Assembly: GCA_001782045.1 (NCBI GenBank)
Contig: MFNK01000002.1
Span: 1-48,228, forward strand
DNA: 48,228 nucleotides
Origin: Candidatus Levybacteria bacterium RIFCSPHIGHO2_01_FULL_36_15b
GTDB lineage: Bacteria; Patescibacteriota; Microgenomatia; Levybacterales; UBA12049
Reading direction: 5' to 3'
The position numbers and the translations under genes were made by a program. Every line of letters begins with the position of its first letter. Positions within the stretch are counted from its first letter, which is position 1. The notes beneath the pieces were generated by a model. The model made no database searches. It had not been told where the DNA came from and was given only the letters and a program-made list of their open reading frames with translations. Below, in pieces: positions 1 through 4,614 of the stretch.

Positions 1-59
1 GTACTTCCTACGTAATACCATCTCTTGATTTTACTTCTTAAAATGTAAACGTGCCACAT
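1..59 (-). CDS. GIY-YIG nuclease family protein, N-terminal fragment (runs off the left edge)
   Basis: Manual translation of the minus strand from ATG at 59-57 gives MWHVYILRSKIKRWYYVGST, matching the (Y/H)VYIL...YxG(S/T)T start of small GIY-YIG nucleases. Not in the ORF track because it is truncated. Confidence 0.75.
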   Translation of the reverse strand, partial: MWHVYILRSKIKRWYYVGS

Positions 60-63
60 TTTA

Positions 64-104
64 TCCTACCATTAGACCTGCCTGCGCAGGCAGGCGACTC
101 GGCA
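64..104 (-). tRNA. tRNA-like 5' fragment (acceptor strand plus D-arm, Gln-like), interrupted by an 18-bp palindrome
   Basis: Minus strand reads TGCCGAG TC G[CCTGCCTGCGCAGGCAGG]TCTAATGGTAGGA. Without the bracketed insert this is U1-start acceptor strand, U8, and D-arm GTC-TAATGGTAG-GA(T), typical of bacterial tRNA-Gln. No anticodon or 3' half is in the window. Confidence 0.5.
77..94. repeat. Perfect 18-bp GC-rich palindrome CCTGCCTGCGCAGGCAGG (REP-like)
   Basis: The sequence equals its own reverse complement. GC-rich in an AT-rich background. Confidence 0.9.
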
Positions 105-145
105 ATGGAATGATTGTATTTTACAGGATTTGAAGCCAAAAAGCA

Positions 146-946
146 TTAAATAGAAGCTCTTAATTCTTTTAAAAGAAGCTTACTGTCGCTACTAAGTGTA
201 TCTAGATTCTCCAGATAGCTTAACGCTGCATATTTGGGAAAGAAAAAAGATACCCATCTATTTAGTTTATTTTGTATTCTTTCATGTGTAAATATCCTCT
301 TTTTTAAATACTCTTTAATAATTCCGTATAAAGCAAGATGATAACCGCATTTGCAGTTATTTTCCAATCCCTTGACAGTTTTATTGAAGTCGCATATTGG
401 AATAGCAACATCAAAATTAGCAAATTTATTCTCGACAAAGCTATTATATTTATAAACTCCTTTGGTAATAAAATGGTAATAACAAGAGGCTGAATATTTT
501 ACTCCCAATTTGCTTTTTTGATTAAGCCTAGGAGCAATTATAGCCATAATTTCTTCAAATAAACGCTTTGATTTATTGCTTAATTTTATAGTATTTTGAT
601 GGGAAGAATAGCTTATCTTGGCCAAGGCAAGATGAATGTTGTCAGTATTTTCCGTCGCATTCATTTCACCAAGTTTGTCTTTAATTAGAGCATTAAATAG
701 GCTTCGTCTTTCTTTTTTTGATAGCTCAAGTATGTCACAGAATGTTTTAAGCTGTTTAAACGTAAAAAGCCTTGTCCCGTTTATTACTTTCGAAAGTACG
801 CTACTGTCTATCTCGGAGAAATGGAGCTTATCCCACATTTTTAAAGCCATCTGATTAAGAGAGGTATTATTTCTGAATACTACCCTATTTCCATCCCTGA
901 TGTAATATTTTGCAATTACATCTTTTAAATGCAAATAGTTGCCCAT
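146..946 (-). CDS. Putative transcriptional regulator with N-terminal XRE/Cro-like HTH
   Basis: 266-aa ORF. IDSSVLSKVINGTR..TFKQLKTFCDIL resembles an XRE helix-turn-helix. Divergent from the ABC operon. Confidence 0.5.
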   Translation of the reverse strand: MGNYLHLKDVIAKYYIRDGNRVVFRNNTSLNQMALKMWDKLHFSEIDSSVLSKVINGTRLFTFKQLKTFCDILELSKKERRSLFNALIKDKLGEMNATENTDNIHLALAKISYSSHQNTIKLSNKSKRLFEEIMAIIAPRLNQKSKLGVKYSASCYYHFITKGVYKYNSFVENKFANFDVAIPICDFNKTVKGLENNCKCGYHLALYGIIKEYLKKRIFTHERIQNKLNRWVSFFFPKYAALSYLENLDTLSSDSKLLLKELRASI

Positions 947-964
947 TTTGTTAAATTAGCGCTT

Positions 965-994
965 ATATTACATTTTATTGACATTTTTGTCAAT
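965..994 (-). promoter_or_regulatory. Sigma70-type promoter for the HTH gene, overlapped by the inverted repeat ATTGAC-N6-GTCAAT (977-994)
   Basis: Minus strand TTGACA (993-988), 17 nt, TAATAT (970-965). The inverted repeat ATTGACA-TTTT-TGTCAAT lies at 977-994. Confidence 0.6.
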
Positions 995-1030
995 GATTCA
1001 AGTGTCAACGTTTGGTAAGCTTACTCCAAT

Positions 1031-1789
1031 ATGCTTAAGATTCAAAGCTTAAGTAAATCTTACCAGAATAAAATCAAAAATAGAGTTTTCGAAAATTTCA
1101 ATCTGGAAATTGAGAATGGAGAATTTGTAGCTGTTTTCGGACCAAATGGATGTGGTAAGTCTACGCTTTTAAACTCGATTGCGGGATTAACGGATATTGA
1201 TAAGGGGGAAATTTTGTTTAATAACTCGACTATTGAAAATCTAAAGATCGGTTTTGTTTTCCAAGACTATAAAACATCTCTTTTCCCATGGCTATCCGCA
1301 GATGAAAATATCTCTTTTCCTCTAAAAGTTGGCGGATTTAACAAAAGAAAAAGAAATTTGATCGTGAGAAGGATGTTTAAAAAATACAAAGGCAATTTTG
1401 ATTTGAAATCATATCCCTATGAACTTAGCGGAGGTCAGCAGCAATTTGTGGCTGTGCTAAGAAGCATCGTTATTGAGCCTGATTTAATATTATTAGATGA
1501 ACCTTTTTCATCCCTTGATTACCAAACTACGCTTTTGTGGCTAGAAAGACTTAGTAAAATATGGCACGAATTAAAAATTACGACCTTGTTCGTTTCGCAT
1601 GAAATTGATGATGCCATATTCCTTGCCCAAAGAATTATCCTTTTAAGCAATAAGCCAACAAAAATAATTAAGATTTTTGAAGTTAATGAAAAATATCCAA
1701 GAAAATTATCTTTTATGGGATCTTCCAAATTTAATAGTTTAAAAAGAAACATCTTATCGCTTTATGAAAAGGAGATTAGAAAAAACTAA
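1031..1789 (+). CDS. ABC transporter ATP-binding protein, NitT/TauT/SsuB family
   Basis: Walker A GPNGCGKST, signature LSGGQQQ, Walker B LILLDEPF, H-loop VSHEI. Confidence 0.92.
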   Translation: MLKIQSLSKSYQNKIKNRVFENFNLEIENGEFVAVFGPNGCGKSTLLNSIAGLTDIDKGEILFNNSTIENLKIGFVFQDYKTSLFPWLSADENISFPLKVGGFNKRKRNLIVRRMFKKYKGNFDLKSYPYELSGGQQQFVAVLRSIVIEPDLILLDEPFSSLDYQTTLLWLERLSKIWHELKITTLFVSHEIDDAIFLAQRIILLSNKPTKIIKIFEVNEKYPRKLSFMGSSKFNSLKRNILSLYEKEIRKN

Positions 1790-1791
1790 TT

Positions 1792-2751
1792 ATGAAAAGA
1801 ATTTTTATAACAATTACAATTCTTGTATTCTCACTTTTGGTTCTGGTTGCTTTTAATAATTATAGCTCAAACAATAAACCGCAACCCAAAAGCAATTTAA
1901 CAAGAGTAAAAATTGCTTTTTCACCCTACGTTTCTCCTTTTTTTGTGGCAATAGACAAAGGAATTTTCGAAAAATACGGAATTAAGGCAGAATTGGTGTC
2001 CATACCTAGCTCCAACAATGCTATGTACGCGTTATCAAAGGGAGACATAGACGTGGTCTCTGCCCCTTATTCAGTATTTTTTGCATATGAAAATGCAGTA
2101 CCGGGAGAATTTAAAATTTTTTCCGGGGTAATAGAAACTCTAGATAAACCTTATAGCTTCTTAATCGTCAAAAAGGACATTAATTCTATTGGGGAGTTAA
2201 AAGGTAAAAAAATTCTGACACGTTCGGGGACAAACGGAAAAATGCAGGCAGAGTTGGTTTTAAAAGGGTTAGGAATAAACTTAGACGAAGTAGAAATTGT
2301 ACAGGTAAGCTCAACGCTAACTGCTCAAACTTTTGTAAAGCCAGACATTGCTGCAGCAATAGATAACGAGCCCTCATCAACCTCTATAGTTCAAAAGGCT
2401 GGTGGGAAAATATTAATAGAAGCCGTAAGACCAAAATATTTGACTAATCCATATGCTTCAACCGGAAATGCTTTTAGTACAAAATTTGCCAAGAATAAGG
2501 ACTTGGCAGACAGATTTACCAGAGCTAACGATGAAGCAATTGATTATTCAAGAAAAAATGATAAAGAGTTTAGGTCGATTAATCAAAAATATATAAAGCT
2601 TGATAAAGAAATTATATTTGCAATGCCAGAAAGTGTTTTTGAAAAATCAACTGAACTAAATAAAACTGCTATAAAAAATGAAATGCAATTAGAGTTAGAT
2701 AACGGTATTCTTGAAAAGGCGGTGGACTTATCTAATGTTTACTACAAATAA
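1792..2751 (+). CDS. ABC transporter substrate-binding protein, SsuA/THI5(NMT1)-like
   Basis: N-terminal membrane anchor, FFVAIDKGIFEKYGIKAELV motif, located between the ATPase and the permease. Confidence 0.85.
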   Translation: MKRIFITITILVFSLLVLVAFNNYSSNNKPQPKSNLTRVKIAFSPYVSPFFVAIDKGIFEKYGIKAELVSIPSSNNAMYALSKGDIDVVSAPYSVFFAYENAVPGEFKIFSGVIETLDKPYSFLIVKKDINSIGELKGKKILTRSGTNGKMQAELVLKGLGINLDEVEIVQVSSTLTAQTFVKPDIAAAIDNEPSSTSIVQKAGGKILIEAVRPKYLTNPYASTGNAFSTKFAKNKDLADRFTRANDEAIDYSRKNDKEFRSINQKYIKLDKEIIFAMPESVFEKSTELNKTAIKNEMQLELDNGILEKAVDLSNVYYK

Positions 2752-3490
2752 AGTTCCCCTTCAAATATTTGCACCAATTTTAATATTAATTTTGTGGATG
2801 ATTGCTGACGGACTAAAAATAGTTAACCCTGTATTTTTACCTTCTCTAAAAGACGTAGCTATAAATATTATTAATATCTTTCTATTAGACGGCTTCTATG
2901 CAGTAGGATTTACGCTCTACAGAACCTTCACGAGTTTGATTATTACCAGTCTTATTGCTATTCCTGTCGGGTTAATTCTAGGCCTAAATAAGAATTTATA
3001 TACTTCGACGGAATTATTGATTGATTTTTTTAGGTCTGTACCGGCAACTGCTTTTTTCCCTATTTTTCTGCTTTTCCTAGGAATCGGAGATATGGCAAAA
3101 ATAGGAATAAGTGTTTTTGTCTGCTTTTGGATACTTTTAATTAATACCTATTACGGAGTTAAAAATATCCCTGCTACGCGATTAAAAGTTGCAAAGGTTT
3201 ATAAAGCTGAAGGGTACAATTTGCTAAGATTTGTAATATTTTATGATTCATTGCCTCAAATTGTAATAGGTTTACGTTTAAGTCTTTCAATTTCTTTAAT
3301 TATTACAATTGTGGCCGAAATGTTTATAGGAACAAGATACGGTTTAGGAAAGATTATCTATGATAGTTATGCAATTTATGATACTGCACAATTGTTTGCT
3401 GCAATATTTATAACTGGGATTCTTGGTTATATCTTAAATAAATTATTTATAAGCACGGAGAAAAAGTTTATTCACTGGATTGGAAAGTAA
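2735..3490 (+). CDS. ABC transporter permease, SsuC/TauC family
   Basis: Multiple TM helices, RSVPATAFFP motif, EAA-like loop, AEMFIG motif. ATG 2735 overlaps the SBP stop region (ORF track starts at 2711). Confidence 0.9.
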   Translation: MFTTNKVPLQIFAPILILILWMIADGLKIVNPVFLPSLKDVAINIINIFLLDGFYAVGFTLYRTFTSLIITSLIAIPVGLILGLNKNLYTSTELLIDFFRSVPATAFFPIFLLFLGIGDMAKIGISVFVCFWILLINTYYGVKNIPATRLKVAKVYKAEGYNLLRFVIFYDSLPQIVIGLRLSLSISLIITIVAEMFIGTRYGLGKIIYDSYAIYDTAQLFAAIFITGILGYILNKLFISTEKKFIHWIGK

Positions 3491-3491
3491 T

Positions 3492-3509
3492 ATTGACAAA
3501 ATCGTCAAT
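3492..3509. promoter_or_regulatory. Inverted repeat ATTGAC-N6-GTCAAT overlapping a TTGACA -35 box of the methyltransferase gene
   Basis: ATTGAC AAAATC GTCAAT, with the same arms and spacing as 977-994. Confidence 0.5.
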
Positions 3510-3542
3510 GAATATTGTATAAGGATCAGTTAAACTTCAGAC

Positions 3543-4553
3543 ATGATTGAAAGATTAAATGAAGATTCGAATATTAACTTCTTGGGTAATTCTACTAGTG
3601 CAAGTGGAGTTGAAGTTATTATTCCTAAGATAGCAAGAATTCCAACTACACAGGAAAATCCATGGGAGGAGTCTCCTTTAAAAATTAAAGGCGCTGGAGC
3701 TGGTAGGTTAGAGTTTCATTTACCACATATAGCTGAAGCACTGCAAAAAGCTAGAAACAGATCTATAAAAAATGGTGAGATAACTGCGGGAGAGGATATA
3801 GCAAAAAATATTCAGGATTTGCTTAAACTGAAACCAGGTCAAGTGCTTGTTGATCTTGGAATGGGACCAGGAATTATAGCCAAACATATAAGTAAATACC
3901 TAGATGAAACTGGCTGGCTTTATTGCGTCGATGCTTCCCCGTCAATGCTGAAAGCTGCTCAAAAAGAACTACTTGGAAACAATGCAACTCTAATTCATGG
4001 AGATATTCATACGGTAGATAACCTAATTCACGAAAAAGCGGACGCCGCAATTTTATCCGGAAACGTACATCTTTTAACAAATAGGGAGTTAGCATTCAAA
4101 GCTATTTACAATATGCTAAAGCCTGATGGCAAATTGGTTGTAGTTACTCATGTTAACAGAAATGCCAAGAAGGAGACTACAAAATTTGCTTCTGAGATAG
4201 ACAAACTTGAGCAAACAAGACCAGATTTAAAAGTAGGTGGATTAAGGCTCCCGATGCTAACTGAAAAAGAATTAAAAGAAGAGGTCGTTCATAAGTTAGC
4301 AAAAGTAGGGTTTACGGTATTAGAAATAGATGCTGAAACTAACGCTCCGGACGTCAATGAGGTTTTAGGGCAAGGAAACATGCCATTACACGGTGTTGGA
4401 AAAAGATTAGCAATTATAGATGGAAGGGTGAATGAAACAAGAAGGGAAGAGATGGCAAAAGATATACTCACCTCGTTATACGAGGGGACTCAGATGCAAA
4501 CGTATTTATTATGTACAAAAAAACCCGCAAGCCTTCTTCCCAAACAAAAATAA
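3543..4553 (+). CDS. Class I SAM-dependent methyltransferase
   Basis: Motif I VLVDLGMGPG, motif II CVDASPSML, GDI motif, LKPDGKLVV. Confidence 0.85.
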   Translation: MIERLNEDSNINFLGNSTSASGVEVIIPKIARIPTTQENPWEESPLKIKGAGAGRLEFHLPHIAEALQKARNRSIKNGEITAGEDIAKNIQDLLKLKPGQVLVDLGMGPGIIAKHISKYLDETGWLYCVDASPSMLKAAQKELLGNNATLIHGDIHTVDNLIHEKADAAILSGNVHLLTNRELAFKAIYNMLKPDGKLVVVTHVNRNAKKETTKFASEIDKLEQTRPDLKVGGLRLPMLTEKELKEEVVHKLAKVGFTVLEIDAETNAPDVNEVLGQGNMPLHGVGKRLAIIDGRVNETRREEMAKDILTSLYEGTQMQTYLLCTKKPASLLPKQK

Positions 4554-4614
4554 ATCTTATATTAATTTCCCACTTGAAAAAAATTGAGAAAAAGACCATA
4601 TTCTTATTAAAGGC

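Follow-up and report, generated by a model that had tools for sequence, protein, structure and literature searches.

The DNA studied here, a stretch of 48,228 nucleotides (nt) from Candidatus Levybacteria bacterium RIFCSPHIGHO2_01_FULL_36_15b (contig MFNK01000002.1 of assembly GCA_001782045.1; hereafter the window), carries at its left edge two pieces of a tRNA-Gln gene, a small palindrome and the beginning of an open reading frame (ORF) for a GIY-YIG nuclease. Read 5′ to 3′ on the minus strand, the edge consists of CAT-TGCCGAGTCG (positions 107..95), the perfect 18-base-pair (bp) palindrome CCTGCCTGCGCAGGCAGG (94..77, strandless; hereafter P), TCTAATGGTAGGA (76..64), a TAAA spacer that joins the tRNA-derived fragment to the start codon (63..60), and ATG (59..57), after which the nuclease ORF continues as MWHVYILRSKIKRWYYVGS to position 1. 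Direct reading thus bears out the order that an earlier note on this DNA had proposed. Only the first 19 codons of the nuclease ORF plus 2 nt (1..59, minus strand) fall inside the window, the remaining ORF and a tRNA-Gln(CTG) gene lying beyond it. The two flanking pieces correspond to a dead tRNA-Gln copy, in which TGCCGAGTCG supplies the 5′ strand of the acceptor stem, positions 8-9 and G10, and TCTAATGGTAGGA supplies three nt of the D-stem, the D-loop and three nt of the returning D-stem (standard positions 11-24), with P seated in the D-stem between positions 10 and 11. P occurs once in the window and none of 100 shuffled sequences contained a match, even when up to three mismatches were allowed; no other GC-rich palindrome of at least 14 nt is present in these 48 kilobases (kb), whose GC content is 32-38%. 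ARAGORN and Rfam called no tRNA in the window, with Rfam matches only at chance level, as expected for a 23-nt piece carrying an insert.

To extend the locus past position 1 we made use of the neighbouring 266-amino-acid (aa) ORF, which is encoded on 20 public contigs. Two sequences reach beyond the edge, namely L001 (281 kb, from the same genome) and the NCBI assembly GCA_001782415.1 (Candidatus Levybacteria). As read from L001 the complete nuclease ORF encodes 82 aa, and an intact tRNA-Gln(CTG) begins 3 nt past its stop codon (ARAGORN; Rfam RF00005, 54.3 bits, E = 5.4e-11), in the place where the earlier note had advised looking for the rest of the tRNA. Once P is removed, the upstream fragment is identical to CAT plus the first 23 nt of this intact tRNA at 26 of 26 positions (13/13 in the left part, against CAT plus positions 1-10, and 13/13 in the right part), so the surmise that deleting the palindrome restores a tRNA-Gln 5′ part was accurate, and the upstream piece does copy the 5′ end of the adjacent tRNA. 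The complete order is therefore a dead 5′ tRNA-Gln copy split by P after G10, the nuclease ORF and the intact tRNA-Gln, for a total of ~0.3 kb to roughly 370 bp. The left edge of the window is best read as the 5′ boundary of a compact cassette that lies within a tRNA-Gln transcription unit.

The 82-aa protein is indeed a GIY-YIG protein, as had been proposed from its first codons. It matches Pfam PF01541 over residues 1-69 with 56.4 bits (cut-off 22.6; E = 3.8e-15 on the full-length sequence) and has no further domains, and in 25 homologues the residues predicted to be of catalytic type are invariant (Y16, G18, R26, E29, H30, N31 and E62) or nearly so (Y5). A profile search of the PDB placed UPF0213 proteins on top (1zg2, 2.6e-8; 1ywl, 1.1e-7), followed by SLX1 (1.7e-4), with I-TevI at only 0.047. 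The AlphaFold model (predicted local distance difference test score 87) likewise gave Foldseek template-modelling scores of 0.64-0.71 to Slx1 nuclease domains versus 0.55 to I-TevI. By sequence profile and modelled fold, then, the nuclease belongs to the UPF0213/Slx1 branch of GIY-YIG proteins. It is a bare catalytic domain with one basic helix and no DNA-binding module: the chain stops after core and helix, without the C-terminal RING/PHD zinc finger of Slx1-type proteins, and a tethered DNA-binding domain of the I-TevI/Seg type is absent, PF01541 being the sole domain found. PADLOC and PHROGs returned no match, and viral contigs contained no relative. The wider family is large: E ≤ 1e-3 admits 16,338 cluster representatives, and 3,001 remain at E ≤ 1e-10.

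A profile built from the 25 homologues (57-70% identity) was searched against species-representative genomes and yielded 44 loci, which span Levy-, Nomura-, Jorgensen-, Wildermuth-, Kaiser- and Saccharibacteria and Paceibacterota among many lineages of the Candidate Phyla Radiation (CPR). The association with tRNA-Gln is consistent. In 41 of the 44 loci a tRNA-Gln gene (CTG or TTG) lies on the same strand 4-80 nt past the ORF, in L033 and L036 it is likewise present and overlapped by the end of the ORF, and the loci that lack one are contig ends and a single distant Acidobacteriota homologue. The search of CPR genomes for tRNA fragments paired with GIY-YIG genes that the earlier note had called for thus turned up the same layout about 40 times: immediately 5′ of the ATG stand tRNA positions 1-10, P, and a further stretch from position 11 to about 21-36. 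Where this stretch ends within that range differs from locus to locus, and in L011 it reaches up to the anticodon; P invariably lies between positions 10 and 11. Positions 1-10 of the fragment equal those of the local tRNA in 31 of 40 loci, despite 12 different acceptor sequences. Sequence comparison places the nuclease ORF under strong purifying selection; pairs of loci agree on average at 0.66 of first, 0.74 of second and 0.42 of third codon positions, and the mean pairwise identity of P (0.96) exceeds that of every other part of the cassette. The cassette is also tightly packed at its downstream side. The gap between the stop codon and tRNA position 1 is 0-7 nt in 26 loci, and in 12 others the ORF ends inside the tRNA, 9 of which use the TAA of the D-loop as stop codon (C-termini ...CGIV). 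This packing leaves no room for a separate tRNA promoter.

In public gene calls these proteins are often given a false N-terminal extension, in which P and the tRNA fragment are translated (SPACAGRSNGR, DRLPAQAGLMVG; for example P0009, P0014, P0003, P0006 and P0032-P0054), and some calls fuse tandem copies (P0027, P0030). Some homologues have the ATG of the D-loop in the reading frame of the ORF (N-termini MVGLMW and MVGQMW). In the window this ATG instead starts a mini-ORF of three codons, ATG GTA GGA TAA (MVG-stop; 72..61, minus strand), whose TAA (63..61) lies inside the TAAA spacer and ends 1 nt before the nuclease ATG. The AGGA within TCTAATGGTAGGA sits 4 nt 5′ of that ATG, and the suggestion that it serves as a Shine-Dalgarno sequence is plausible at this locus; it does not hold as a general role, given that the spacing to the ATG differs among loci.

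Candidate signals for transcription are found on the far side of the fragment. Two overlapping -10-like hexamers, TAAAAT and TACAAT (113..123, minus strand), lie upstream of it, the latter ending 8 nt 5′ of fragment position 1, and the stretch is ~70% alignable with the orthologous region of L007, a scaffold of a second Levybacteria species. Across loci a -10-like hexamer (at least 5/6 match) is found within 20 nt 5′ of the fragment in 17 of 41 cases, compared to 9 of 205 control windows. From their sequence and placement, the hexamers are likely to be the native tRNA promoter, which would now read into the cassette. In the RNA, P is predicted to fold as an 8-bp hairpin. A further predicted fold (window 30-76, minus strand) pairs the AUG region with codons 5-8 over 10 bp (overall z = -2.3).

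Comparison of related genomes points to movement of the cassette. Between L001 and L007 the flanking orthologues share 69-73% nucleotide identity and the cassette 94-99%, with high identity running from fragment position -2 to the last base of the tRNA. This contrast in sequence identity indicates a recent horizontal exchange between species. Furthermore, L006 has L001-type flanks on both sides of an L007-type cassette allele, an allele that carries two compensatory base-pair changes in the anticodon stem of the tRNA. Two other loci, L005 (1440-1520) and L176 (2900-2940), keep one flank and the cassette and switch genome at or inside the tRNA, and may be tRNA recombinants or assembly chimeras. 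Decay and duplication are seen as well, with broken ORFs in L027, L032 and L048 and tandem or duplicated units in L030, L132 and L179. Cassette-free tRNA-Gln genes with an identical D-arm exist in L085 and L128, the latter sharing its downstream gene with occupied loci. Occupancy of the site is optional and the cassette has spread beyond its host background, as one might expect for a homing gene. These data agree in essence with one proposal of the earlier note, that of a mobile unit which duplicates tRNA ends: the layout is repeated at about 40 loci, and species have exchanged the cassette.

In some loci the layout is extended. In this arrangement (type B in L020, L021 and L029) the ORF is followed by an intact tRNA-Gln flanked by a 7-10-bp inverted repeat, which extends the acceptor stem, and then by a full-length tRNA-Gln copy with P at 10/11 (L020:3244-3460; L021:3003-3200, the same as L171-L178; L029:3250-3450; L032:3260-3470). 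The two tRNA copies of L021 differ in their acceptor and T arms, and an 11-nt stretch from the end of the ORF is repeated after the intact tRNA. In four metagenome runs, assembled contigs that cover P and the fragment (window 61-120) have ~100 times the depth of the flanks (~1300-1600 versus 12), and contigs end there; the module of P and fragment is a community-wide repeat.

Related nucleases occupy other tRNA genes. These sister loci were recognised through representatives of the wider family whose over-called N-termini translate P (LPAQAG, PACAGR, CLRRQ) or segments of tRNA. At tRNA-Leu, P follows GGCAGA or GGTAGA in the dead copy (L179, L180) or follows GGTGGCG (L182). At tRNA-Glu, the 20-nt variant CCTGCCTGCCGGCAGGCAGG (L181) or another variant of P (L183) follows ATCGTC. 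At tRNA-Asp (L132), P lies at 13/14 and is accompanied by a second palindrome, CCCCGAG-NN-CTCGGGG, while the dead tRNA-Ser copy of L184 has a different GC-rich hairpin in its D-loop. A tRNA-Tyr locus (L110:4390-4830) is a mirror image, in which the tRNA is followed by the ORF and a duplicated 3′ half. The D-arm of the dead copy holds a hairpin at 10/11 in tRNA-Gln, 12/13 in tRNA-Glu, 21/22 and 12/13 in tRNA-Leu, and 13/14 in tRNA-Asp, and such a different position for each tRNA family implies either repeated acquisition of the hairpin or strong selection for it. In L114 (8985-9245) a small GIY-YIG ORF lies between perfect 15-bp inverted repeats (CCCCTCACATAAATT and AATTTATGTGAGGGG), as if inserted in the middle of a palindrome.

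P is also dispersed away from tRNA-Gln genes. A scan of metagenome contigs from which the tRNA-Gln context was excluded returned at least 120 loci (L051-L170) with at least 127 distinct sites, most of them in contigs of 30-50% GC; by our estimate, about one site would be expected by chance in the whole collection. Many of these solo sites lie in frame within long ORFs, where the LPAQAG reading is commoner than PACAGR or CLRRQ. Sites of P away from the cassette include L092:10885, L051:4237, L089:8356, L018:180 and L011:2731; P is in frame in a CysRS-like gene of L018, and the 834-aa ORF that carries it in L092, which is unannotated, we take to be PolA-like. Among the matches listed, P is preceded and followed by the same base in 65% of sites versus 31% in shuffled controls, the flanks share no target consensus, and clustering of the nearby ORFs revealed housekeeping genes only, with no recurrent gene and no candidate mobilising enzyme. 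The idea that solo copies are templated filler derived from the cassette was discarded, their flanks not matching those of the cassette. Six covarying variants of P were recovered when it was written in a shifted register as CCTG, a 5-bp stem and a GCAG loop (CCTG-s-GCAG-rc(s)), whereas six controls with scrambled motifs gave none; with the reverse-complement pattern, as expected, nothing but P itself was recovered. In this register the stems CCCGC, CATGC and CTTGC alter both sides of a pair.

P-like units also occur in combination. Nested palindromes of 36 nt, with an 18-nt P-like unit inside P at 7/11 in either orientation, stand 5′ of the ORF in L018, L038, L044 and L046; other P-like units lie in the anticodon loop (L020:3392) and T-loop (L032:3433) of dead tRNA copies, and L146:7335 is a further site in this set of nested or additional units and stem variants. 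In L042 (296-313) a tRNA-Thr(CGT) has the variant CCTGCCTGCGCAGATAGG directly at its 5′ end, and the left flank of this variant, gtATCG, resembles the gATCG that flanks the tRNA-Gln insertion. Of the 25 matches to P in viral contigs, most lie in contigs of high GC with neither tRNA nor GIY-YIG context; the matches look unrelated.

To account for this layout we favour, at a probability of roughly 0.6, a nuclease cassette that is selfish and homing-like and is housed within the transcription unit of tRNA-Gln. With its gene placed between an essential tRNA and the promoter of that tRNA, the nuclease would probably be co-transcribed from the tRNA promoter, and RNase P would release the tRNA. Imprecise deletion of the cassette would then kill the tRNA, while the duplicated 5′ part would keep one tRNA copy whole. 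The tRNA sequences at both edges, as the only DNA conserved between species, could act as arms for copying or recombining the cassette into the tRNA-Gln genes of other genomes. The nuclease would initiate this copying by cutting cassette-free tRNA-Gln DNA, whether at the D-arm, in the anticodon region or at structured, cloverleaf-like DNA. After a break in the D-arm, the left end could pair with fragment positions 1-10, synthesis would pass through P, the ORF and a new tRNA 5′ part, and the new strand would re-anneal to the right end, a scheme that would account for both the layout and the arrays. P may be an integral functional part of such an element: it could serve as a mark on the cut site of the dead copy or confer immunity there, it could break up the 23-36-nt direct repeat and so prevent deletion of the cassette, and/or it could form a protective 5′ RNA hairpin.

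Several observations weigh against this homing-like cassette. In its D-arm the intact tRNA next to the ORF does not differ from cassette-free tRNA-Gln genes, and a nuclease that recognises sequence would consequently also cut its own locus, whereas classical homing requires an immune donor; an altered D-arm in the linked tRNA, considered as a source of such immunity, was rejected on this identity. Sequence-specific homing is doubtful in any case for a bare 82-aa domain that is closer to the structure-specific Slx1/UPF0213 proteins than to I-TevI. A strict two-hexamer sigma-70 scan of the window found no promoter directly 5′ of the fragment, and the cassette is known here from DNA metagenome contigs alone. 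The exchange between L001 and L007 could be plain homologous recombination between resident cassettes with the nuclease uninvolved, and the flank switches of L005 and L176 may have been created in assembly. Lastly, a role as spacer or generic hairpin does not explain the near-invariant sequence of P. Conservation at the level of sequence requires a factor that reads it specifically, whether or not that factor is this nuclease.

Other explanations fit parts of the same data. The nuclease might be a trans-acting mobiliser of P, in the manner of REP elements and RAYT, with the tRNA-Gln locus as master and the solo copies of P as non-autonomous products. We regard this proposal as doubtful, though it is compatible with the homing-like cassette. 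It would explain why P is the most conserved part of the cassette, why P or near variants have been acquired repeatedly in dead-copy D-arms of several subfamilies at differing positions, and why additional P-like units lie in dead tRNA copies (L020, L032) or nested in P (L018, L038, L044, L046). Dispersal points the same way, in that the at least 127 other sites are of low GC, have no other recurrent gene near them and in 65% of cases show the 1-nt duplication signature, and variants of P covary as tetranucleotide plus hairpin. However, the window and L001 together (~58 kb) contain a single P, the density of solo P in cassette-bearing loci is only weakly raised (3 in ~260 kb), the P sites in D-arms mostly lack the 1-nt duplication typical of solo sites, and we know of no GIY-YIG enzyme that transposes DNA alone. 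The earlier note had raised the link between nuclease and palindrome spread as one of its options, and of this the association stands, with P in the D-arms of several subfamilies and dispersed elsewhere; a causal link does not follow. An unlikely alternative is that the nuclease has been domesticated for the benefit of the host, for example in repair or processing of structured DNA, and is co-expressed with tRNA-Gln behind a regulatory or stabilising 5′ leader made of fragment and P. Strong purifying selection, invariant catalytic residues, proximity to cellular UPF0213/Slx1 proteins, the 5′ hairpin of P, the predicted pairing of the AUG region with downstream codons (z = -2.3) and the lack of phage or defence library matches and of viral copies would all suit such a gene. 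They contrast with its patchy occurrence beside cassette-free tRNA-Gln genes, with pseudogenised ORFs and tandem arrays, with cassette identity far above that of flanking orthologues and with sister subfamilies that repeat the layout at five other tRNA species; moreover, a leader would not need to copy the acceptor strand of the local tRNA.

Site-specific integration is a far less probable origin. Here a small circular or foreign DNA would have entered at an att-like core in tRNA-Gln through a recombinase encoded elsewhere, leaving the repeats as attL and attR, and the insert is in fact flanked by direct repeats of tRNA sequence, partial duplication of a tRNA being the classical scar of integrase-mediated insertion (PMC9897764). 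Yet the ~0.3-kb cassette has no recombinase gene and none is conserved nearby, the 5′ rather than the usual 3′ part is duplicated, one repeat always carries P, and the right edge of the fragment moves from position ~21 to 36, so that there is no fixed core; an integrase island was accordingly rejected for a single 82-aa ORF with no recombinase and a variable inner repeat boundary. Least credible of all, with next to no probability left to it, is a tRNA gene interrupted by a nuclease-encoding intron, which the earlier note had listed as its first option. The ORF does begin where the anticodon arm would start, and in some loci (L011) the fragment reaches the anticodon. After the ORF, however, the sequence restarts at tRNA position 1 and continues as a complete tRNA rather than a 3′ half, and this is therefore not an intron; the ORF fills the whole interval with no space for a ribozyme, and no intron family in Rfam matched at E ≤ 1. 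The intact downstream tRNA and the absent intron-family match together refute the intron.

A broader and more speculative view would extend the homing-like cassette to a class of minimal mobile elements not recognised before, each composed of a dead 5′ tRNA copy interrupted by a hairpin, an Slx1-like GIY-YIG nuclease of ~80 aa and an intact tRNA, with members at tRNA-Gln, -Glu, -Leu, -Asp and -Ser. In this view a structure-specific nuclease would drive the cassette into tRNA genes and mobilise P in trans, and P would enter housekeeping genes of CPR genomes in frame and disable rival tRNA copies, a natural system akin to cleave-and-rescue. We offer this tentatively, as a possibility that is more likely wrong than right by a good way. 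Engineered cleave-and-rescue gene drives keep a nuclease gene in tight linkage with a functional copy of an essential gene whose other copy is disrupted. Type B loci resemble them in combining a nuclease gene and a working tRNA copy with a second, disrupted copy. They differ in that the linked tRNA copy is not recoded against cutting, and the nuclease is only a putative cause of the disruption.

Outside the cassette, a 4.4-kb block (window 147-4555) lies between it and an fn3-domain gene and is absent at the orthologous place in L007. It contains a methyltransferase gene, three ABC-transporter genes (NMT1-type binding protein, permease and ATPase) and the 266-aa ORF used above for extension (146..946, minus strand), for which no family matches were found.

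Each of the known systems that the cassette recalls differs from it in several respects. Small mobile palindromes are familiar as REP elements with their RAYT transposases, as Rickettsia palindromic elements and as the GC clusters of yeast mitochondria. P is likewise a short GC-rich palindrome dispersed in AT-rich genomes, often in frame in genes like the Rickettsia elements and composed of tetranucleotide plus hairpin like REPs. It differs from the REP/RAYT pair in its length of only 18 bp and in the linked gene, which encodes a GIY-YIG protein instead of an HUH (Y1) transposase, and its mobility is putative, as is any enzyme behind it; dispersal of the REP kind would fit the at least 127 solo sites and six covarying variants, yet the 48-kb window has one copy. 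The UPF0213 (YhbQ-like) and Slx1 nuclease domains (PDB 1zg2, 1ywl, 6seh, 7cq3) are the best matches in sequence and fold, with the same Tyr, Arg, His and Glu positions, but Slx1 has its C-terminal zinc finger and needs Slx4, neither of which is present in the cassette. In the searchable literature no tRNA-nested gene arrangement is described for UPF0213 proteins.

Closest in setting is SegB, a free-standing GIY-YIG homing endonuclease gene in the tRNA gene cluster of phage T4 (PMC2330249). In Seg genes of T-even phages, as in the cassette, a GIY-YIG gene lies among or in tRNA genes, is patchy in occurrence, is inherited with flanking tRNA sequence and is exchanged within limits set by homologous flanks. 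Seg proteins, however, have at least 200 aa and DNA-binding modules, whereas the cassette encodes a catalytic domain of 82 aa from the UPF0213/Slx1 branch; no partial tRNA duplication or palindrome is known to have been described for Seg genes; and their hosts are phages, whereas the cassette resides in CPR bacterial chromosomes and no viral copies were found. Integrase-carrying elements of kb scale leave one partial and one complete tRNA copy (PMC9897764), and islands and prophages of this kind resemble the cassette in that one incomplete and one whole copy of the target tRNA flank the insert and tRNA function is preserved. Those islands carry the gene for a recombinase of the tyrosine or serine type, and it is usually the 3′ part that they duplicate, with a fixed core. 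The cassette is in contrast a ~0.3-kb insert without recombinase, with a 5′ duplication, a variable inner boundary and a partial copy that always holds a GC-rich hairpin. A full-text literature search found no description of a tRNA/P/GIY-YIG cassette.

If the homing-like cassette is real, it would be among the smallest self-contained selfish DNA units known, with ~0.3 kb and one 82-aa protein. It would illustrate a way to inhabit an essential, intron-less RNA gene without breaking it, by duplicating the 5′ part, using the promoter and borrowing the TAA of the D-loop as a stop codon. For genome analysis, cassettes and P are cross-genome repeats that break or mis-join metagenome assemblies at tRNA genes and give rise to false N-terminal extensions in gene calls. 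At the same time an 18-bp palindrome more conserved than any coding part is found scattered in CPR genomes, including as in-frame 6-aa insertions in housekeeping proteins, and the small GIY-YIG proteins of UPF0213 type, a large and uncharacterised family (3,001 clusters at E ≤ 1e-10), would gain a biological context.

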